This document shows, in pieces, positions 18,636-49,323 of a stretch of 64,000 nucleotides of DNA. Every line of letters starts with the position of its first letter. The first letter of the stretch is position 1. The DNA lies in the IMG/VR virus record IMGVR_UViG_3300029955_000001. The stretch is one strand, 5' to 3'. A model generated the notes under the pieces. The model saw nothing but the letters and a program-made list of their open reading frames with translations, was not told the DNA's origin and did not search any database. A program made the position numbers and the translations under genes. The DNA comes from a virus (lineage: Duplodnaviria > Caudoviricetes).

Positions 18636-19091
18636 TTAAATTGAAATAGGCAATTTACCGCTCAATATCCATGACACGATATCAACAGATAAGCAGTCTA
18701 TAATCTGTCGTGTAGCGCTCACAAAACGCTCGTTGTTAGCCGCTGATTTTGCTCGTAGATATTTCAGGTAATCTGGCGTGCTATAATGTCTGGTATGTGT
18801 TACTTGTTTACCACGATGTATTAACTCTATTAAAGATAATACATTAACTATCCCGTTAATAGTACGCGATATACAAAACCCCGTCGTAATACTACCTGGA
18901 TCTATTTTTACTTCTATTTCTTGTAATTGACAATCCTTTTGATCTAGATCAATTAATTGGATTACAAAAGGTTTTACCTTTATCACACGTGCTCTACCTC
19001 TTTCGAGTAATAAACGTGCTCTTTTACCAGTACACGGCATGAGTGGTAGTTTATTCTTATCGATTACAAATACAAATGGTTTACCTGACAT
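18636..19091 (-). pseudogene. iscB: Truncated IscB (PLMP/RRXRR + RuvC-I only) with unrelated C-terminal tail
   Basis: MSGKPFVFVIDKNKLPLMPCTGKRARLLLERGRA...KIDPGSITTG; breaks after LIELIHRGKQV, so no bridge helix or HNH. Confidence 0.85.
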
Positions 19092-19328
19092 AATAATCTT
19101 TCTGTGATTTACATCACTGGTTACATTCCCCTCGACAATGTTAAAATAGCTTTTTACGTTATACACATTATCCCTTACTCTTAGGATTGTTTAATGTATA
19201 ACGACAGAGCTACAGACTGAGGAAGCATCTGTAGGTATCATGACTAAAATAACGTAGTACAATTAAGTACTGAGTCTGGTCAACTTAATACCTTACGGTA
19301 TCATCCTTTTAGGGATGGAGTAATTGAC
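19092..19328 (-). ncRNA. IscB omegaRNA (HEARO-like) scaffold
   Basis: GTCAA..CCATCCCTAAAAGGATG..GTTGACCAGACTCAG..CTACGTT..GATGCTTCCTCAGTC..TTAAACA..AACATTGTCGAGGGGAATGTAACC directly upstream of iscB. Confidence 0.85.
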
Positions 19329-19506: not shown

Positions 19507-20331
19507 TTATTTTAAGTCAAGTGGCACGCCTATTATTGGATCTTCTCCATGAAATATTACACCTACTCGGTTTACTACTTTATCGAAAATAGGCATCTCT
19601 AGTTCCAATATTCTTGATCTAGCCACTTGTAAATTTGAGTCTGTTCTTGCTTTATGTTTCTGTGGAAGTGAATCTAATTCTTCAGTAGAAAATAAACCAG
19701 CTATAACACGGCGCTGAATAAACGTGCCGCGTTTGAATGAAGATGGAAAATCATTCCAATTGACACCTTTTGCCATCAGCATATCTTGCATCTCTGCACC
19801 TGATTTTTTGTGCAATTGAGCTTGACTATAAAAAGCACTAGCTGCCATGCTAATACTATTTTTAGAAGCATCGCGTTCACGCCATAGGAAGTTATTTGTT
19901 GCTTCTTCTAACGTAGGGAAGTTACATGCTCTGGCGTCAAATGTAGGTAAGCGATCAGCAAAACCTGGCATTTGTTTTAACACTTCTCTGTAAAAGAAAA
20001 GTGTGGCTTGCGCAGCAAGATGAGAAGTCATTTTAGCTACTCTTCTATCAAACCAAATTTGATTCTTTAAACTATCAGAATACCACGTCAGAGTAATTTC
20101 ATCACTCTGCGTATACCCCATGATAGCATTGGTGTGGTCTACTAAATATTTAGTAGTATTAACCATAGCTCTAGTCATCCGTAAATCAAATGGGCGATCC
20201 ATTCCTTTTGTAAAACGACTGAAACCACGACCATCTAATCTTGCTACGATTGGTAGTAACGGGAAGAACCTACGATCAGATTCGTAGTCTTCATACATTT
20301 TCATACGATCGCCAAGTGCGTCTAAAGACAT
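19507..20331 (-). CDS. thg1: tRNA-His guanylyltransferase Thg1-like protein
   Basis: LGDRMKMYE, IVARLDGRGFSRFT, GYTQSDEITL, TFDARA, WRERDASKNSISM. Confidence 0.92.
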   Translation of the reverse strand: MSLDALGDRMKMYEDYESDRRFFPLLPIVARLDGRGFSRFTKGMDRPFDLRMTRAMVNTTKYLVDHTNAIMGYTQSDEITLTWYSDSLKNQIWFDRRVAKMTSHLAAQATLFFYREVLKQMPGFADRLPTFDARACNFPTLEEATNNFLWRERDASKNSISMAASAFYSQAQLHKKSGAEMQDMLMAKGVNWNDFPSSFKRGTFIQRRVIAGLFSTEELDSLPQKHKARTDSNLQVARSRILELEMPIFDKVVNRVGVIFHGEDPIIGVPLDLK

Positions 20332-20386: not shown

Positions 20387-20677
20387 TTAGCTAAACAGAT
20401 ATCGATGTTTTTTTTCATTACGCACAGGTAAACAATATCGAATACCTTCTGTGTTATTTTTATTAAAGAAATGCAACGTATAACATGGCAGAACTTCGTC
20501 GCCCTGATATTTAGTTTCTGCTGTACCTGTTTGCATATCAAATTCATTTAGTTCTGTTACAACTGTATGTATAAAGCTATGAAATTTATTTTGAAGCTCT
20601 TTATTAATACAGCGTGTCGTAATGAATTCAAATACAGGAACTGGGTCACTTCCTAATGATGGTAAATGTTCTAACAT
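20387..20677 (-). CDS. Hypothetical protein (tandem paralog of 20692 ORF)
   Basis: Shared CYTxxFxNxxNxxGIRYCLxVxNEK. Confidence 0.65.
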   Translation of the reverse strand: MLEHLPSLGSDPVPVFEFITTRCINKELQNKFHSFIHTVVTELNEFDMQTGTAETKYQGDEVLPCYTLHFFNKNNTEGIRYCLPVRNEKKHRYLFS

Positions 20678-40681: not shown

Positions 40682-41182
40682 CTAAAAATAAATTTCAGTT
40701 CCATCTTTCACTGATTGTGGCCAAGTTTTCACTTCTTGTTGCGCAGCTTTTACTTGATCGTACAAAGTTAAAGATTGTTTTGGTTTTTTATTTTCATCAC
40801 GTAGTCTTATTAATGTAGCGATATCATTTATACAACTACAAGTTTCAATATAAGTTTTATTCTCTACTTTAGCAATTAACTTAATTAGATTGTTTCGTTC
40901 TTCTTGCGCGTTATCTGAACTAATTACTTTTTGCGAAAGATCTTGTACGAATAGTCGCGCTACTGCTATTTTAGCAGCTTGTACTAAATCATTCACTTTC
41001 TGTGTTTCTTCAACAGAAATCAAATTAGGTGCCATGTACAAATGCATTAATATATTCATAGCGTTTGATGTACTTGGACTAACACTCTCTCTATCGTGAA
41101 GCATGCGAGATGCTCCTAGTATTTCTTGTTTTTCTTCTTCTGTATCTACTAGTATTTTAATCATGATGTTATTTTCCTTCAT
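40682..41182 (-). CDS. Hypothetical protein
   Basis: Co-directional ORF. Confidence 0.55.
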   Translation of the reverse strand: MKENNIMIKILVDTEEEKQEILGASRMLHDRESVSPSTSNAMNILMHLYMAPNLISVEETQKVNDLVQAAKIAVARLFVQDLSQKVISSDNAQEERNNLIKLIAKVENKTYIETCSCINDIATLIRLRDENKKPKQSLTLYDQVKAAQQEVKTWPQSVKDGTEIYF

Positions 41183-41368
41183 TGTTCTCTAACCATTTTT
41201 TAATATAATTATTTTTTATTTCAATTTTTTTCGATTCAGGTAATTCAGCACTACTAGAAAATAAAATAAATAATGAATCAAGCGTAGAGACATAATGATC
41301 AAATGCTTTCATTTTGGCTATAAAACTTATTTCAGCTGATATCATGCCCCCCCCCTATTATTTTTAAT

Positions 41369-41587
41369 TTACGGACATAAAAGACCATGATGATATACTC
41401 CTTTAGCATCAGGTCTGTCGCCAGGTTGCGTAGAAGATTTTCCAATATTACGCTTAATGATTAGACCAGTTATCTCGTTCATAGCTGCTACTATTTCCAA
41501 ACAATTCATAGTAGCAGCTAACTGATTACATAGATCGTAAATTCCATTCTTTAGTTGTGCTTCTGGGCTATCTCCAAATACACTCAT
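41369..41587 (-). CDS. Hypothetical protein
   Basis: AAGGAA SD. Confidence 0.5.
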   Translation of the reverse strand: MSVFGDSPEAQLKNGIYDLCNQLAATMNCLEIVAAMNEITGLIIKRNIGKSSTQPGDRPDAKGVYHHGLLCP

Positions 41588-41809
41588 TTATTTTCCTTCG
41601 TTATTTCAAAGCTGCGAAATTCATAGAACAAATATAAGAAATATGCGCGCACGCTGCTTTAGTACCTGGCGTAATGAATTTATTATGGCGAGGTGTTAAA
41701 CCTTCTAATCCTTTTACTGCCATGTTACTCTCCTTTATTTTTTATGACTTCAACAGAACAATTTTTTAAAGAAAAGCTTAATATCTCTATATCACTCATG
41801 ATCTATCCT

Positions 41810-42013
41810 TTAAGCTGTATGAAAAATGACGCAAACACCGATAATGATAGTAATAGTTGTTACTACCATCATCATCCAAAATGCAAAGAACTCTGGTTCA
41901 GAATTATTTTTCTGTTTACAAATTAAACCAAAATGTTCCACTACAACTCTAGCTGGAGGCGCCTCTGGAGGTGGAGTATGATAATGTAATTCTTTTTTAA
42001 ATTGTTTCTTCAT
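41810..42013 (-). CDS. Small C-terminally anchored membrane protein
   Basis: AGGAG SD; hydrophobic C-terminus. Confidence 0.55.
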   Translation of the reverse strand: MKKQFKKELHYHTPPPEAPPARVVVEHFGLICKQKNNSEPEFFAFWMMMVVTTITIIIGVCVIFHTA

Positions 42014-42093
42014 TACTATCTCCTGATGTAGGCTTATGTAACATACCGTTATAAGTAAGTTATTCTGCCAATAGTCTCAAAATTTTTTAATCT

Positions 42094-42342
42094 TTAATCA
42101 ATTGGATGTCTTGATATATTGTACTTCCGTCCATAATCTCGTTCTCTATCCACACATTTTTCGCATTTGTGACAAGTGAAATATAAAATACGTGGACATG
42201 CGCTATTATCACCTTTGAAAGAAACTCCTTCATCCCAATAGTGAAAACAAAATAGTTGCTTAAAGAATTTTCTTATTGATCGACGATAGTCAGATACAAG
42301 TATAATTACAAAGCAAAATACACAAAACGTAACCGACTCCAC
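42094..42342 (-). CDS. Small membrane protein with Cys/His motif
   Basis: FCFHYW...TCHKC. Confidence 0.45.
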   Translation of the reverse strand: MESVTFCVFCFVIILVSDYRRSIRKFFKQLFCFHYWDEGVSFKGDNSACPRILYFTCHKCEKCVDRERDYGRKYNISRHPID

Positions 42343-42365
42343 AATGCAGAAAGTGCTTGGCGTGA

Positions 42366-43265
42366 TTATCCTATTTTAGAATTACTTCCAGATTTATATT
42401 TAATCGTTATTGCGAAGTTACCAGTATCATTCAATCTTACACCCCAATTACTGTACATGTGCGGGCAGTAGACATTACGCTTGTTAATAATTGTTTCAAA
42501 ACCTCGTACGCCACGTATTTCCACTCTAGTAGTTACTGGATCATATTCAATTGTTCTATACAGCGTTGTTGGTGAAGTTCCTTCTGGACACGCATGACCG
42601 TGAGGTAAAATATGCTTTAACAAAAACATACCTGACGGTAGCGTAATTTTACTAGTAGCTAATGCAAGTTCAGAAATATCTAGTTTTGTTATATCTTCTT
42701 TAGATGGCTGTTTATGCATAGCCCAGGCCACTCCATCAAAATCGAAATCATTACTTTCTTTATTATCTTTACTGACACAAAGTGCAGATTTCTTAAGAAG
42801 TTCCAGTGTCATCTCTGGATTTTCATTAGCAGTCATTGGATCGATGGCGTGTGCTACCTTACAACGAGGCTTGAAGTTTCCATCCCCATCTGCGTAAAAC
42901 CCAACCATCCTACTAGATCCCCAACTAGCCAATTTATTCCAATGATCAAACATGGCTTCTAATGCGATTCCTTGCGCTGGGGTTACGTCAAAGTACGCAG
43001 TCATTTGGTAACGTTCTTTACTCTTTCTGATCGGAGTATGTGTTTCACTCAGCGATATTTGCGTAGTAAAGAATTTACTATCAAATGTCTTTACAATCTC
43101 AGCATAATTAGCAATCGTTTCTGGACGTTCTTCTGGATCGACTAATCGAATATCGTGAAAACCAGCTTCTTTCAGAGCTTTTTGAATAACTGCTAAAATA
43201 ACAGTTTTACCAGTGTTAGCTTTACCCGATATGTTAATCGAGATTTGATCTTTTTCAGTGTTCAT
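42366..43265 (-). CDS. Hypothetical multi-domain protein with P-loop-like N-terminus
   Basis: ISGKANTGKT. Confidence 0.55.
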   Translation of the reverse strand: MNTEKDQISINISGKANTGKTVILAVIQKALKEAGFHDIRLVDPEERPETIANYAEIVKTFDSKFFTTQISLSETHTPIRKSKERYQMTAYFDVTPAQGIALEAMFDHWNKLASWGSSRMVGFYADGDGNFKPRCKVAHAIDPMTANENPEMTLELLKKSALCVSKDNKESNDFDFDGVAWAMHKQPSKEDITKLDISELALATSKITLPSGMFLLKHILPHGHACPEGTSPTTLYRTIEYDPVTTRVEIRGVRGFETIINKRNVYCPHMYSNWGVRLNDTGNFAITIKYKSGSNSKIG

Positions 43266-43292
43266 TATAATTTCCTTTGTTCTAAGAATTTA

Positions 43293-43964
43293 TTATGCTA
43301 AGCCGTGTTTAGTAACCCACTCTGCTACAAGTGGGATGTTCGTAAAGCTTATTTCTTTGGCTAATACTTTCGCTTCTTCAATCTTGTTATTTTGCAAAAG
43401 TATACCAAGGTCACGTACTTCTGAAACACCTTGTCCATTATTATAGGACGCTTGTAACAAATACAATTCTTGCCACAGTGTTGAGAAATTATAAGTACCG
43501 GTGTGTTTAATTGAAAACCTAATAGGATACGCTCGCATAGCAGCCGATCCAATTGAGAGAGGCAGTATGTCGATATTCAAATCGAAATCTTCTCGCATCT
43601 TTTCAAAACTACCAAAAACAAAAAATTCTAACGACGCCATCAATGATGACAATACGAATCCATTACTTGGACGATAGCCGCGCGTTGTTAACTCCTGAAT
43701 AACACGCCCAGCCGATGCGTATGAATAAAATTTCTCAGCCATACTAGCATTCTCTGTCCAACATCCATTTGGTTCATCTGGGTTTTGGCGAATATGTATA
43801 TCTCGATAAAAATAACTCGGAACACGTAAATGTTTCGAATTAACTCGAATAATAACACCAGCAAAGTCAGATGTAATTTGTTGATCTGGAATTATGTCAA
43901 GACGATCTCTTGATTTTGTTATGACTTCCCAACCTGATATTTCTTTACCTCTATAATAGTACAT
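43293..43964 (-). CDS. Hypothetical protein
   Basis: AAGGA SD; C-terminal domain shared with 31421 ORF. Confidence 0.6.
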   Translation of the reverse strand: MYYYRGKEISGWEVITKSRDRLDIIPDQQITSDFAGVIIRVNSKHLRVPSYFYRDIHIRQNPDEPNGCWTENASMAEKFYSYASAGRVIQELTTRGYRPSNGFVLSSLMASLEFFVFGSFEKMREDFDLNIDILPLSIGSAAMRAYPIRFSIKHTGTYNFSTLWQELYLLQASYNNGQGVSEVRDLGILLQNNKIEEAKVLAKEISFTNIPLVAEWVTKHGLA

Positions 43965-44013
43965 TTCTTATCCTTTATCTACACAAACAATTAACGTGTT
44001 CTATATTTTTTTA

Positions 44014-44445
44014 TTATTCTGGCATAGTGTCTATTTTATACCCCATGAATTCTGCGTATTCACGTATCGTTGATACAAATAACTTAATGTCGATTTTATC
44101 TCCATTTATTGGCCATCTAGTGGCAGCGAAGAAGTTAGCCACGATAAAACTTACAGCTTCATCACTCCCCGTGTCATTTGCCCCCCCCCCCACATTCCTA
44201 TCCAAAGATAGTCTTGTGGGTAGAGCTGAAGTATCTTAGAAAGCTGTTGTTCGGTAAGAATGATACCACTAATCTCTTTGATCTTATCTTTGACCCAGTT
44301 GAACGTATCGTACGTTTGATGCATACCAACAATTTATAGTAATTTCATCATACGTTCTTTATGCATCTTCATGACCGTATTACAGTTGTCACTTGCAAAA
44401 CGCTTCGGATCACTTACAAGATATTTAGGTTCTATGATCAACATG
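44014..44445 (-). pseudogene. Disrupted ORF (in-frame TAA plus G-run frameshift)
   Basis: AAGGAA+ATG near 44445; reading continues through TAA near 44335, then shifts at the poly-C run near 44180-44190 into the 44014..44205 frame. Confidence 0.45.
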
Positions 44446-44460
44446 CTATTTTCCTTTATT

Positions 44461-44847
44461 TTATTTAATCACAATGAAACGAAAATTATTGGAACACTTC
44501 TTAGGATCTTCGGTTTCACCAAACCAACGTAGTACCCAATAATTGTTACTTGAGTCTTCAAACGTTATTTCAGCTTTCCACATCTTGCCAGGATAAACAC
44601 CACTTGGTAATGAAGTGGAATATGTTTTTAGTTGACGAAATGTTTCTTGATTCATGATAGCGTTCTTATCATCTATCACAATGTCTTTCGAATCAGGCTG
44701 TTCCCAATATTGCCCCATTGGATCTGTGACTGGCGGAATAATATTTGGATCTTTCTTACCAAATATCTTATCCCAGCCATCTCGATATTTATTCGATGGT
44801 TCTCTTGAAACAATCGTATCACCTGTGATATCATTTTTACTTGCCAT
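44461..44847 (-). CDS. Hypothetical protein
   Basis: MASKNDITGD...YRDGWDKIFGKK N-terminus; AAGGAG SD. Confidence 0.65.
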   Translation of the reverse strand: MASKNDITGDTIVSREPSNKYRDGWDKIFGKKDPNIIPPVTDPMGQYWEQPDSKDIVIDDKNAIMNQETFRQLKTYSTSLPSGVYPGKMWKAEITFEDSSNNYWVLRWFGETEDPKKCSNNFRFIVIK

Positions 44848-44915
44848 TATTACTCCTTAGGAAATAAACTGGAACTTACGAACAACCCTGATAGATTTAA
44901 AGCGTTGATATTAAT

Positions 44916-45212
44916 TCATGCCTCGTATATAAAAATACAAATTTGTAGTTTTACGTGAAAAATACACTGCCATAAATCACCGTCACTATTGCCGCTGTCA
45001 ATAATGATTAAGTTATTGAAATTTTCTTTAATCTCTTTATAAGAAATTAAACTAGGATCATTACCGTTTTCTATTTTTTCAATTCTTTGCTGATTAATTG
45101 GAATTCTTTGGTAAGCGTAAACTCCACCAAGTGCATCTTCATCAAACGCTCTAGTAAGGTAATTATAAAACATTGATATTGCTGCGTCGCCGTATTCAAT
45201 TGTTGTTGCCAT
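44916..45212 (-). CDS. Hypothetical protein
   Basis: AAGGAA SD. Confidence 0.55.
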   Translation of the reverse strand: MATTIEYGDAAISMFYNYLTRAFDEDALGGVYAYQRIPINQQRIEKIENGNDPSLISYKEIKENFNNLIIIDSGNSDGDLWQCIFHVKLQICIFIYEA

Positions 45213-45214
45213 TT

Positions 45215-45409
45215 CTATTTTCCTTTTTTCTCTTTGTAAATACCAAATGTTCGTAGATCTTGTTTAGCAATTTTTCGATCTTCTAGTATTACGTGTGTTG
45301 ATGTAGTTTCAATAAATTTACTGATAATAATTTCATCACTACTATAAAGCGTAACGCGTACGCGTTTTCCACGTTTACAACTAGTGTGGGAAGTTTTATG
45401 TTTTAACAT
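45215..45409 (-). CDS. Small basic hypothetical protein immediately downstream of the array
   Basis: AAGGAG SD; 64 aa, too short and unlike a Nop domain. Confidence 0.6.
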   Translation of the reverse strand: MLKHKTSHTSCKRGKRVRVTLYSSDEIIISKFIETTSTHVILEDRKIAKQDLRTFGIYKEKKGK

Positions 45410-45550
45410 TATTCTCCTTTATGATTATTAGTAAATTTATGGATGAGGAATGCTCTACCCTCACTCCTCTCCAATTGATACACTATGTTAAACTGTTGAG
45501 AGTCCGGTATCCTTAGGTCTCAACTTTTACTACTTGTCACTTCATATCGT

Positions 45551-47504
45551 TGGTTTACTATCTTTAACTGATTCACTTTTAACTCATGGTTTACTTTACC
45601 AGATTGATTCACTTCACTCCCTTGGTTTACTAAGACGAATTGATTCACTTATTGCTATTGGTTTTATTCGTGGTTCTGATACACTTAAACACATTGGTTT
45701 ACTAAACCTATTTGATTCACTACCCCGCTACGATACACTTGTTGGGTTTGGTTTACTATCTTGATTTGATGCACTAATTGGATCTGGTTTGCTTACGTTC
45801 ATTGACACGCTAATTAATTCTGGTTTACTAGTTCGTAATGACACACTTCGCCAGCTTGGTTTACTACACGTTAATGATACACTACGATGGCTTGGGTTTA
45901 TTTGCATTTCTGATACACTAGAGCACAACGGATTACTTTTATTGATTGATTCACTAACAACCATTGGTTTACTGTTAAGCTTTGATTCACTAATTAATAT
46001 TGGTTTACTGCCTTTCATTGATTCACTGCGGTGGGTTGGTTTACTGTCGAACGTTGATACACTATGCTTCCATGGTTTACTATACATTACTGATAAACTT
46101 ACAGGAGATGGTTTACTTATTTAGTTCGATACACTGGATACCAATGGTTTACTGTTGATTGGCGATACACTAATACCTGTTGGTTTACTTCTGTTTTATG
46201 ATTCAATCGTCGGGCTTGGTTTACTATCGTGTAATGATACACTTTTGACTAATGGTTTGCTAAATCAACTTGATACACTAACCCGCTATGGTTTACTGTT
46301 GATTGGTGACGCACTTCAGTATGTTGGTTTACTAACGGTCATTGATTCACTTTTAACTCATGGACTACTTGCGCATGCCGATACACTTCGTTACATTGAG
46401 TTACTAAAAATATGTGATACAATAAACTCCAATGGATTACTTCCCCATTTTGATACACTTTGCTGACTTGGTTTACTATGTTTCAACGATTAACTAGGTC
46501 TATCTGGTTTACTGTTTTTCACTGATGCGTTACGTAGCTTGGTTTACTTTCCTATTCTGACTCACTGTGCTCCTATGGATTACTTACACATGCTGATTCA
46601 CTACAGGTTAGTGGTTTACTTTGGCTGATTGATACACTAACGTATTATGGTTTACTTAACACCGCTGATACACTTAAACAGATTGGTTTACTTTGCCTTC
46701 TTGATTCAGTTGTTGAGTTTGGTTTACTAACGAATTTTGATTCACTTCAGTCGCATGGTTTACTGCCAGGCTTTGATACACTACGCTGCAATGGTTTACT
46801 TATGTCCCTTGACACACTGTTGCTTCTTGGATTACTTTATACCCGTTGATACACTGGTCTTAACTGGTTTACTCTGGTTCATTGATACACTTACTGTCTT
46901 CGGTTTACTATAACCTTCTGATACACTGTTATAAAACGAGTTAATTATCATCATTGATACTTTAGGTCATTTTGGTTTACTTTTGTTGTTTGATTCGCTA
47001 CTGTCTTCTGGTTTACTTTCTAGTTATGGCACACTAACTACCCATGAGTTACTGAAATTAATTGATACACTATTTCTTCTTGGTTTACTTCTTCGTTGTG
47101 ATACATTGACTTCCCGTGAGTTACTGACCGGAATTGATACACTAGTTCGACTTGGTTTACTGGATAACATTGATACACTTAAGAAGATTGGATTACTATT
47201 GGAATATGATTCACTAGAACTTTATGGTTTACTTGAACGCATTGATACACTACGATGCAGCGGTTTACATGTTTTTGTTGATACACTAATACCTGTTGGT
47301 TTACTACTTAATGTTGACACACTAACATCCCTTGAGTTACTCGTGCACGATGATACACTTAATATTCGTGGTTTACTGATTCATTCCGATTCACTATACA
47401 ACACTGGTTTACTTGTGCACCTTGATACACTACGCTCCTATGGTTTACTATCAAGTATTGATACACTAGTATCTTTTGGTTTACTAAGACACTACGACGT
47501 AAAA
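45551..47504 (-). repeat. TIGR-like tandem interspaced array: 54 x 36-bp units (AGTAAACCA-N9-AGTGWATCA-N9)
   Basis: Plus strand YGGTTTACT-N9-YGATWCACT-N9 read by hand from 45551 to ~47500; one extra half unit (~45723), one -1 (~46535) and one +1 (~46840) indel; stops in all frames. Confidence 0.85.
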
Positions 47505-47550
47505 AGGAGCATAACTCCTAAGTAGTATTTAAATTCATTAGCTACTCACT

Positions 47551-47570
47551 TAAGTGATATATGACTATAT
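47551..47570 (-). promoter_or_regulatory. Putative promoter facing the array
   Basis: ATATAGTCATATATCAC; same ATATATCAC core at 2581, 28334, 63870. Confidence 0.5.
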
Positions 47571-47602
47571 TTGTTTTGAATATAAAAAAAAAATAGGGCA
47601 TA

Positions 47603-47632
47603 AATAGATGGATTATTTCTAATCCATCTATT
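47603..47632 (-). terminator. Hairpin/terminator separating the array from the upstream RNA cluster
   Basis: AATAGATGGATT-N6-AATCCATCTATT, with a downstream T-run on minus strand. Confidence 0.6.
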
Positions 47633-48011
47633 CAATATTTCGATGAAACGAATGTTATTAAACTAGTGTATTAGTCACCAGCCGGAGATTCCAACATCCA
47701 ACAAACCTCCTCTTTTACTGCTTCGTTTTTAATGTATTCAATTCCGGCATTCTAATTGGAAACCAATCAGACAAAAGTGGAGTTGAAATTTCAGTAAACT
47801 AATGTCTACCTAGATTTTATTTAATCTCATCCCATGTAGCAGGAGTCTTGATCACAGTTAAAATCAGACTGTTTAAAACATAGTTGGGTCATGGAGACTG
47901 ACCAACATCACGCGTAATCCCCTGAGGCTTATTCCCCTCACAAGTAATCTCCCAGCCTATTTCTAAGCTTAGCGTCATCATTGGCTGACACAATTATCTA
48001 CTACCAATTAA

Positions 48012-48089
48012 TGGTGCTCACTGTCTGACTCGAACAGACGACCTCCGCATTACAAGTGCGGCGCTACTAGCCAACTGAGCTAAGCGAGC
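48012..48089 (-). tRNA. trnT: tRNA-Thr(UGU)
   Basis: GCTCGCT acceptor, CCGCA-CT-TGT-AA-TGCGG, TTCGAGT T-loop, CCA encoded. Confidence 0.9.
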
Positions 48090-48117
48090 AATACAACGAA
48101 TACAATTTGAACACAAT

Positions 48118-48259
48118 ACGACAAGATTGACAAGATAGCGAGATTGCTCCCAGCGCTCTATCCAGCTGAGCTACCTAAATCTCATTTCTGAAATATAGAG
48201 TAGGAATCGAACCTACGACCTCTTCATTAACAGTGTATGTAATCTTTATCTGCATTCGT
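48118..48259 (-). ncRNA. Y-RNA module Y1, YrlA-type (T arm, closed acceptor, D arm)
   Basis: GAATGC..TTACA, GGTTCGATTCC, AGCTCAGCTGGATAGAGC, CTTGTC. Confidence 0.85.
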
Positions 48260-48278
48260 AAAGCATTCAAAACTCTGA

Positions 48279-48399
48279 CCTGACAAAATTAATAAGATAT
48301 TTTATAAACTCTTTCGAGTCTATTCCTTGGATTTGAACCAAGTAACTACAGGATTATTCATCCCTCGTATTTGCCCATGTAATATTATTGGCATTCAGG
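48279..48399 (-). ncRNA. Y-RNA module Y2
   Basis: CCTGAATGC-N9-TACA...TTTGTCAGG; T arm CTTGGTTCAAATCCAAG. Confidence 0.75.
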
Positions 48400-48419
48400 T
48401 GTAAACTTTAAAAACTATT

Positions 48420-48512
48420 GGTGACAAGTGTTGTTAAGAAACGGTACTGCTGGGCGAAGAAAGGGAGTCGAAACTCCCGCATCTCTGCGATGTAATCTTA
48501 ACTGCATTCACC
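48420..48512 (-). ncRNA. Y-RNA module Y3
   Basis: GGTGAATGC-N9-TACA...CTTGTCACC; GGGAGTTTCGACTCCC. Confidence 0.78.
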
Positions 48513-48532
48513 GTAAACTCGATTGATCACTT

Positions 48533-48644
48533 CATGACAATTGTTGATGAAATTTCAGCAGTTTCCTGCTCCGCTGGTCATTGCTAGGAACTCTAACCTA
48601 ACTACCTCTCACGGCTTTTCAATGTAATTCCATCTGCATTCATG
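48533..48644 (-). ncRNA. Y-RNA module Y4
   Basis: CATGAATGC-N9-TACA...ATTGTCATG. Confidence 0.7.
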
Positions 48645-48660
48645 TTGTAATCAAAACCTT

Positions 48661-48735
48661 TGGCAGACCGTATGGGTTTCGATCCCATCTAACCACCTTG
48701 AAAGGGTGATGACCTCACCAGAAGTCGAACGGTCC
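48661..48735 (-). tRNA. trnE: tRNA-Glu(UUC)
   Basis: GGACCGT acceptor, TCACC-CT-TTC-AA-GGTGG, CCA encoded. Confidence 0.85.
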
Positions 48736-48746
48736 ATAAAACACTT

Positions 48747-48844
48747 TCCGACAAGTTAAGTAAAGATAGCCTTTCGGCATGGCGAAATATCAGATGTTTC
48801 CATCCAATAGCTTGGCTCGCAATGTAATCCTTACAGCATTCGGA
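48747..48844 (-). ncRNA. Y-RNA module Y5
   Basis: TCCGAATGC-N9-TACA...CTTGTCGGA. Confidence 0.75.
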
Positions 48845-48864
48845 ATAAAACTTTAGAGTACTGA

Positions 48865-48921
48865 ATGACAAAATCAATATTGACGTAAATATTCGTAATA
48901 TGTAATCAATACAGCATTCAG
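48865..48921 (-). ncRNA. Y-RNA module Y6 (minimal, ~57 nt)
   Basis: TGAATGC-N9-TACA, short hairpin, TTTGTCA. Confidence 0.65.
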
Positions 48922-48946
48922 TCAGCACTCGTAACTTGATTGAGTC

Positions 48947-49082
48947 GTAACGACAAGAATTAATAAATCAAGGGTTTCCCCTAGCTAGCGTTCTAACCAA
49001 CTGAACTACAACTCTTTTCAGAATTGACTGGAATCGAACCAGCGACCTCTTGCCTGACTGTAGATTTATCAGCATTCATTAC
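48947..49082 (-). ncRNA. Y-RNA module Y7, YrlA-type
   Basis: T arm GCTGGTTCGATTCCAG, AATTCT-GAAA-AGAGTT closed acceptor, D arm AGTTCAGTTGGTTAGAAC. Confidence 0.85.
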
Positions 49083-49147
49083 AACTCAAAACCGGTATCC
49101 GCACATTAGTGATATGTACAATTGAAACTTTAATTAAATCAGATGTT

Positions 49148-49284
49148 TCGTAACAAGTAATAAGTAAAACATGATTGTAGACCTGAGGGAGTGAGCCTCA
49201 GTGCGTTGCCGTCACGCTGTCCCTCACTTACGAGAGGTATGGGGTCGAACCATATCACTTATGTAGTTTTACTCGCATTTACAA
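49148..49284 (-). ncRNA. Y-RNA module Y8
   Basis: GTAAATGC-N9-TACA...CTTGTTAC; ATGGTTCGACCCCAT. Confidence 0.75.
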
Positions 49285-49323
49285 ACCATCCAAATCTTTG
49301 CATGAAACAATTACCAAGCAGAC

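Follow-up and report, generated by a model that had tools for sequence, protein, structure and literature searches.

The window analysed here is the whole 64,000-nucleotide stretch of the IMG/VR virus record IMGVR_UViG_3300029955_000001 (Duplodnaviria; Caudoviricetes). On its minus strand, at 45533-47503, it contains a dual-repeat array of the tandem interspaced guide RNA (TIGR) type with approximately 54 units of 36 nt, each consisting of an edge repeat (AGUGWAUCA), a loop repeat (AGUAAACCA), and the two 9-nt spacers called A and B. An earlier reading of this DNA, in the following called the original prediction, had ascribed the window to a jumbo phage. This is borne out by a phiKZ-type major capsid protein, which matches phrog_3231 and PF25620 and shows 58.6% identity to Burkholderia phage FLC9, and by the assembly of the same genome in peat metagenomes at 287,585 and 287,594 bp. 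No DNA-level match to the phage was found in the INPHARED phage collection.

Direct reading of the sequence and a repeat parser, which walks along the minus strand in 18-nt steps, resolved 108 alternating 9-nt repeats from 47503 down to 45533, with 54 copies of AGTAAACCA in strict alternation with 54 copies of AGTG[T/A]ATCA. When positions 45300-47800 are laid out in rows of 36 nt, the unit reads TGGTTTACT-N9-TGATWCACT-N9 on the plus strand. Spacers are exactly 9 nt long in 105 of 107 cases, 104 of the 107 are distinct, and each spacer column carries at most 0.47 bit of information. The 36-bp period, the alternating repeats and the mostly distinct 9-nt spacers of the original prediction are thus confirmed. 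Register slips that are visible in the row layout are caused by one spacer of 8 nt near 46540, one of 10 nt near 46846, and an edge-edge doublet at 45739/45721, where one unit has no loop repeat. The array starts with a 5'-truncated edge-type repeat (47503-47495) and finishes with a 3'-truncated one (45541-45533). Tandem Repeats Finder (TRF) alone recovers only fragments of the array because half of each unit varies.

Both repeats begin with AG at the position of box D and end with YCA at the position of box C, which is CCA in the loop and UCA in the edge repeat. Conservation reaches at least 90% at each of the positions A1, G2, C8, and R9, in edge and loop repeats alike. Among all parsed repeats, C8 (110/111), R9 (110/111), and A1 (108/111) are nearly invariant. 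The A or G at position 9 of the minus strand corresponds to the pyrimidine that had been noticed before the first G of the repeat on the plus strand. The array does not differ in a single base among four independent samples and, for this reason, gain or loss of units in the population cannot be read from them.

The plus strand of the array contains a frame reading GLLxxxD(T/S)Lxxx, here called the GLL/DTL frame, which raises the question of whether the region is a protein-coding tandem repeat with the 12-residue unit xxxGLLxxxD(T/S)L, or a pseudogene derived from one. Over its 651 codons, this frame is interrupted by only 9 stops, in comparison to 33-109 in the other five frames, and gene callers place ORFs (open reading frames) of 103-180 aa in it. 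As the original prediction had pointed out, the ORFs are broken by stops, and two frameshifts interrupt the frame in addition. Because the repeats are free of stops in this frame and the preceding codon ends with a pyrimidine, stops are possible in only two codons per half-unit. The spacers contribute 5 stops, compared to 9.0 +/- 2.5 with shuffled spacer columns (P 0.08), so the frame owes its openness mostly to the repeats rather than to protein-level selection. For the 180-aa ORF, Pfam gave no match. A reading with recoded stops was rejected, as the stops are a mixture of TAA, TGA, and TAG and the other genes of the window read well under table 11.

Codon usage leads to the same result. The first Leu codon is TTA in about 91% of the repeats versus 35% of the Leu codons in 15 long genes of the same phage; WCA is used in about 91% of the repeats, whereas ACA accounts for 34% of Thr codons and TCA for 16% of Ser codons in phage genes; and the codon before the repeat is pyrimidine-ended in about 99% of cases versus 54% in phage genes. 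Fixed synonymous sites with random codons between them show that the array is constrained at the nucleotide and not at the codon level, as had been proposed, and that it is an RNA array and not a gene. No intact long ORF under purifying selection was found; related arrays are also free of ORFs, and the conserved codons are fixed at synonymous sites. Furthermore, the same DNA repeats adjoin tas genes in the opposite sense in dozens of phages. With this, the interpretation as a protein repeat is already close to refuted.

The original prediction had found no tas gene in the window, and a hidden Markov model (HMM) of 122 Tas sequences likewise detected none in any of the six frames (best E 0.08 outside true Tas loci). 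It had also proposed to extend the search by HMM and structure prediction to the rest of the genome. Starting from the right end of the window, 150 kb of the genome were built as a path through public contigs with exactly identical proteins and exact 60-mer overlaps. On this path, a tas gene encoding 452 aa is located at 136,487-137,845 (L064:3164-4522), on the minus strand like the array and 89 kb away from it in the same genome. The exact 452-aa protein occurs on 17 contigs, including four blocks with contigs of 0.2-1 Mb, as is the case for genes of the window.

As a single sequence, the 452-aa protein matches TaTasR with E 3e-6 and SpTasH with E 7e-5. As a profile of 40 sequences searched against the PDB, it matches TaTasR (PDB 9mty; bioRxiv 10.64898/2026.09.09.750476) with E 2e-19 and SpTasH from Salicola phage CGphi29 (PDB 9w03/21kl) with E 2e-10, and it resembles both proteins in its Nop domain and coiled coil, by profile as well as by fold. 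For its AlphaFold (AF2) model, which has a pLDDT of 84, the top 11 PDB matches in Foldseek are all TasH or TasR with a probability of 1.00; the IS621 recombinase and Nop5 come next. At its N-terminus, the family aligns with TaTasR from about residue 123 onward, past the RuvC domain, and no RuvC or HNH nuclease domain was found in the protein with Pfam (no match at E<0.1). Together, these observations point to a protein of the TasA type with a coiled coil and a Nop domain, for which, in contrast to SpTasH and TaTasR, target cleavage is not expected. A further difference from TaTasR is that about 125 aa are inserted into the Nop region; this insertion may harbor a cryptic activity. In SpTasH, Y289 and H296 form the C-terminal Tyr/His dyad for processing of pre-tigRNA (PMC13421893). 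Y438 of the phage Tas aligns exactly with Y289, while the alignment stops at G444/G295 and H447 lies, by alignment only, two residues beyond the position that would follow on from H296. Y438 and H447 are each conserved in at least 90% of 40 family members.

Just downstream of tas, a 92-aa ORF is encoded on the plus strand (L064:4602-4880) with weak matches to helix-turn-helix and sigma-70 region 4 domains (E ~1e-3). Judging from these matches, it may encode a small DNA-binding regulator.

Directly upstream of tas lies a mini-array of 4 units, in which both repeats are identical to those of the large array. It is bordered by a truncated edge repeat, and a hairpin with a U-run comes after it. 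The two arrays, which together hold 58 guides, share the spacer AGGGAGTGA, in the spacer-B position in both. In addition, three 9-mers each occur twice within the large array, while only about 0.02 duplicates are expected by calculation among 107 random 9-mers. All four reused spacers keep their position after the edge or after the loop repeat, and the partner spacer differs. Recombination between the 9-nt repeats would give exactly this pattern of spacer reuse.

The two arrays are also linked by their upstream regions. A promoter-like element at 47554-47582 on the minus strand, 50 nt upstream of the large array and ending in CATATATCAC, agrees in about 28 of 31 positions with an element upstream of the tas-proximal mini-array. 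The 10-mer CATATATCAC has one copy in the window (47563-47554) and two in total over the 150 kb examined; both are located on the minus strand upstream of TIGR arrays, 50 nt from the large and 20 nt from the small one. Each copy is preceded by a terminator hairpin with a U-run. At the large array, this hairpin (47585-47632, minus strand) closes an upstream tRNA/Y-RNA transcription unit and separates that unit from the array promoter, and an equivalent hairpin is present in front of the promoter of the mini-array. A version of the element with CATATATAAC is found upstream of a related array in another phage, named G1 and described below. From its sequence and positions, the CATATATCAC element is predicted to be a dedicated array promoter that is present in two copies.

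Related arrays were found when IMG/VR and JGI contigs were scanned for the exact pattern of the two repeats. In G1 (L001, IMGVR_UViG_3300036715_000363), an 11-unit array with the same repeats lies directly upstream of, and in the same sense as, a gene for a 406-aa protein that matches TaTasR (PDB 9mty) with E 5e-9 and SpTasH with E 2e-5. With the 122-member HMM, tas genes were detected beside arrays on contigs L039, L027, and L028, and a tas gene was also found in a further phage, G2. The repeats adjoining tas are the same as those of the window in G1 and L039 and of the same type in L027 and L028. The Tas family as a whole has 2563 database matches, many of them on contigs of 200-285 kb. Pfam Nop (PF01798) gave no match on related viral records, as this model is too insensitive for Tas. 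A scan of genome contigs for the repeat pair gave mostly single chance matches and one Bacillales metagenome-assembled genome with short arrays, and thus no clue to the host.

Among 80 sampled IMG/VR tas loci, 60 have arrays with a 36-nt period, 64 arrays in total, all of which are encoded on the tas-sense strand. This agrees with the orientation on the minus strand that had been proposed for the array in the window. Both repeats in the arrays of these 60 loci have the form A.......CA, and an AG start is found in nearly all of the 64 arrays. In the edge repeat, positions 2-7 are G-C in 21, G-U in 16, and A-U in 25 arrays, and positions 3-6 are C-G in 52 and U-A in 6, the array of the window having U-A. 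The loop repeat is A-rich and unpaired at positions 3-6, with A-A or A-C in 51 of the 64 arrays. According to the published description, dual-repeat tigRNAs have a box C/D pair, to which the edge repeat adds one further, covarying pair, while the loop repeat is rich in A and resembles a tetraloop (PMC12045711). This correspondence identifies AGUGWAUCA as the edge and AGUAAACCA as the loop repeat.

The assumption of a very large TIGR array with its effector encoded elsewhere is upheld by the tas gene 89 kb away, with its mini-array of identical repeats and the same promoter element. The most convincing interpretation, which we regard as quite probable, is that the large array is a TIGR array served by this distal Tas. 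The original prediction had also considered an effector from the host or another virus, or one that is not a Tas protein, but this assumption is unnecessary because the phage encodes its own Tas. A host Tas, the Tas of a co-infecting element, or a neighboring protein could be invoked because the window extends 45 kb to one side of the array and 16 kb to the other without a Tas, and because the downstream ORFs of 64, 98, 128, 223, and 299 aa have no Pfam assignment. Against this stand the phage's own Tas, whose gene adjoins an array that has both repeats, one spacer, and the promoter element in common with the large array; the co-variation of the repeat sequence with the Tas lineage over 60 loci; and the observation that neither G1 nor G2 has a homolog of the array-flanking ORFs of the window beside its arrays. 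An effector other than the distal Tas is therefore very improbable.

If the distal Tas serves the large array, the array's own promoter would drive its minus-strand transcription into a precursor of about 2 kb. Tas dimers would bind edge and loop repeats at their box C/D ends, and Tas would cut inside each edge repeat by means of the conserved Tyr/His pair that is aligned with the SpTasH dyad. This would yield about 54 tigRNAs of 36 nt with the structure (3' part of edge)-spacer A-AGUAAACCA-spacer B-(5' part of edge). As the phage Tas has no RuvC or HNH domain, binding of DNA and a blockade of transcription or replication would be likelier than cleavage; repression by nuclease-less Tas proteins has been described for TasA and dead TasR (bioRxiv 10.64898/2026.09.09.750476). 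The targets would probably be DNA of the host or of competing elements, which is the weakest step of the proposed sequence. By analogy with these proteins, there is about an even chance that the output of the system is RNA-guided repression of host or rival DNA.

A target search for 18-bp sites composed of spacers A and B had been suggested earlier. For this, every adjacent spacer pair was used in both registers, with two opposite-strand geometries, two control geometries, and up to 2 mismatches. On the 150-kb path through the phage genome, with the arrays masked, two 17/18 matches were obtained versus about 0.23 expected. One of them has the expected geometry and register, for which about 0.05 matches were expected, and lies at 20508-20525 of the window inside an ORF of about 95 aa (unit 46126). 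The other has a control (same-strand) geometry and lies at path position 79,768 (L050:2919-2936, 15.8 kb past the right end of the window; unit 45802), where a thymidylate kinase gene has its start codon. Taken together, the two are only slightly above chance, and matches with 2 mismatches are at chance level in the 150 kb.

Several observations weigh against a functional guide array that is served from a distance. No convincing target was found in the 150 kb searched of the 288-kb genome, and about 1 Mb of other phage loci contained neither a target with up to 1 mismatch nor an excess of shared spacers. In five related jumbo-phage records (81-100% complete), strict edge-N9-loop matches occur only beside tas. 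A distance of 89 kb between array and tas is, as far as could be checked, not described in published accounts of TIGR systems. Box D is AG here, versus UG in TasR arrays. About 40% of the repeats have at least one mismatch; together with the unit without a loop repeat and the off-length spacers, this may mean that part of the array is inactive. The leader contains a terminator-like hairpin between the promoter element and the first repeat (47505-47519, minus strand), which was found in a terminator-like scan and consists of a small GC hairpin followed by UUUUU; it may cause transcription attenuation. Finally, assembled metatranscriptome contigs from four runs cover only parts of the array at a depth of 3-7, like the neighboring genes, and these contigs show neither strand nor ends nor 36-nt products, with DNA carry-over being possible at such low depth.

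Some of these points could also be explained by a relic or an array without guide function, which was duplicated from the tas-proximal array and is decaying, or which acts as a sponge or decoy that titrates the phage's own Tas or that of a competitor. The degenerate repeats, the edge-edge doublet, the two off-length spacers, the hairpin in the leader, the lack of targets in the 150 kb and the 1 Mb searched, and the exclusively tas-adjacent arrays of the five relatives would fit such an origin. Decay is, however, difficult to reconcile with the near-invariant box C/D positions (C8, R9, and A1), with the exact spacing of all but two spacers, with a promoter element that is nearly identical to the tas-proximal copy, and with the identity of the array in the four samples; moreover, the tas-adjacent arrays of relatives are equally imperfect. 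We thus consider a relic or decoy unlikely and retain the interpretation as an array served by the distal Tas.

In size, the large array exceeds what is known from arrays next to tas. The 64 sampled tas-adjacent arrays have 4-30 units with a median of 10, so that the 54 units of the large array are almost twice the number in any of them, and TIGR arrays in general have been reported to have 'most often 5 to 15' units (PMC12045711). Published arrays are described as located upstream of, downstream of, or inside tas (PMC12045711), and the search of TIGRFinder is centered on tas loci. G2 (L008/L009, IMGVR_UViG_3300010167_000031) provides a second case in which an array is not adjacent to tas. Here, a degenerate tas-proximal array lies just downstream of tas at about 11.4-12.9 kb, and a second, also degenerate array of about 55 units lies between unrelated genes at about 19.0-21.0 kb, 7.7 kb past the tas-proximal one.

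The system shares with TasA dual-repeat systems (PMC12045711; Xu et al., bioRxiv 10.64898/2026.09.09.750476) the alternating 9-nt edge and loop repeats, the two 9-nt spacers, the 36-nt unit, the box C-like YCA ends, the covarying edge pair, the A-rich loop, and the truncated edge repeats at the ends; these systems are phage-borne as well and have a coiled-coil and Nop-domain Tas without a nuclease as partner. It differs from them in the distance of 89 kb from tas with a separate promoter copy, in the 54 units, and in having AG instead of UG as box D. The arrangement also resembles orphan or remote CRISPR arrays with their cas genes at another location, in which a guide array with its own promoter is far from the effector and is served in trans. 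In contrast to these, TIGR systems have spacers split into 9+9 nt, box C/D repeats, and a Nop-domain effector, and no adaptation genes are known for them. The remote, separately promoted, and very long array and the evidence for a reshuffling of half-guides are new, while the kind of system and its mechanism were already known.

A more far-reaching idea is that distant, separately promoted mega-arrays are a regular layout of TIGR-Tas systems that has been overlooked because finders look only near tas; that the array of this phage encodes more than 50 RNA-guided repressors directed against the host or rivals; and that the reuse of half-guides records recombination between short repeats and not a Cas1/2-like adaptation. 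We put this forward tentatively, as a possible but rather doubtful generalization. Acknowledged gaps in the understanding of TIGR-Tas systems are the natural targets and the origin and growth of the arrays (PMC12045711; bioRxiv 10.64898/2026.09.09.750476). For the first, a near-complete 288-kb genome with its guides in two arrays and a nuclease-less Tas would be well suited to a search for targets as soon as the host has been identified. For the second, four half-guides that are reused in the same position with new partners are a clue to recombination-driven evolution of arrays. If an effector is served by an array 89 kb away, tas-centered array catalogs undercount guides, and some Tas lineages that appear to be 'arrayless' may keep their arrays elsewhere.

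On the other side of the large array, the trailer that separates the last repeat from the gene after it (45409-45532, minus strand) contains a 7-bp hairpin and an isolated edge-type 9-mer at 45494-45486. A canonical terminator was not found in this trailer by a terminator-like scan and folding, the z-score of the fold being -1.5 and not significant. Transcription may read through from the array into the first downstream gene (45215-45409, minus strand), which starts at 45409, is co-oriented with the array, and encodes 64 aa; according to ORF calls and the Tas HMM search, its product is not a Tas protein.

Parts of the stretch are present in 20 metatranscriptome runs (17 peat and permafrost studies), and the contigs of the four runs mentioned above were placed on positions 41000-53000. 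In addition to the low coverage of the array, a depth of 44-80 is reached at 47.7-48.45 kb, in the region with tRNA and Y-RNA-like sequences, and a depth of 164-547 at 52.0-53.0+ kb (contigs of 1.36-1.65 kb from the four metatranscriptomes), versus less than 10 on the neighboring genes. These high depths indicate that the phage was transcriptionally active in the samples. The transcript at 52.0-53.0+ kb is an abundant phage RNA, and the 2.4 kb from 52000 to 54400 are free of ORFs longer than 75 aa. Within the same part of the window, a sub-threshold match to a permuted tmRNA is located at 53846-54303 on the minus strand (40.4 bits in comparison to a gathering score of 47, E 1.5e-5), adjoined by tRNA-Ser and tRNA-Met (54425-54649).

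In the region 47700-51931, a protein with Ro60/TROVE and von Willebrand factor A domains is encoded at 50258-51931 on the minus strand, upstream of a gene-poor stretch that contains tRNA-Thr, tRNA-Glu, and three sub-threshold matches to the Y RNA-like YrlA at 48944-49082, 48152-48223, and 49807-49926. The concentration of RNA-related genes in the window is increased further by a Thg1-like tRNA-His guanylyltransferase at 19507-20331 on the minus strand (Pfam E 7.6e-28). A full-length match to Rfam HEARO, the omega RNA of IscB-type systems, is found at 19120-19328 on the minus strand (149.7 bits). It is followed by a 176-aa ORF, which matches Pfam RRXRR with E 4.9e-23 and is much shorter than a normal IscB. 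Together, the HEARO RNA and this ORF (18636-19328, minus strand) make up a second RNA-guided element of this phage, which is probably truncated.

To the right of the window, an HNH endonuclease gene (L017:2705-3313, L018:1262-1921) encodes 202 or 219 aa and has neighbors that vary by sample, while the rest of the region is identical. This variation probably reflects the polymorphism of a mobile homing endonuclease.

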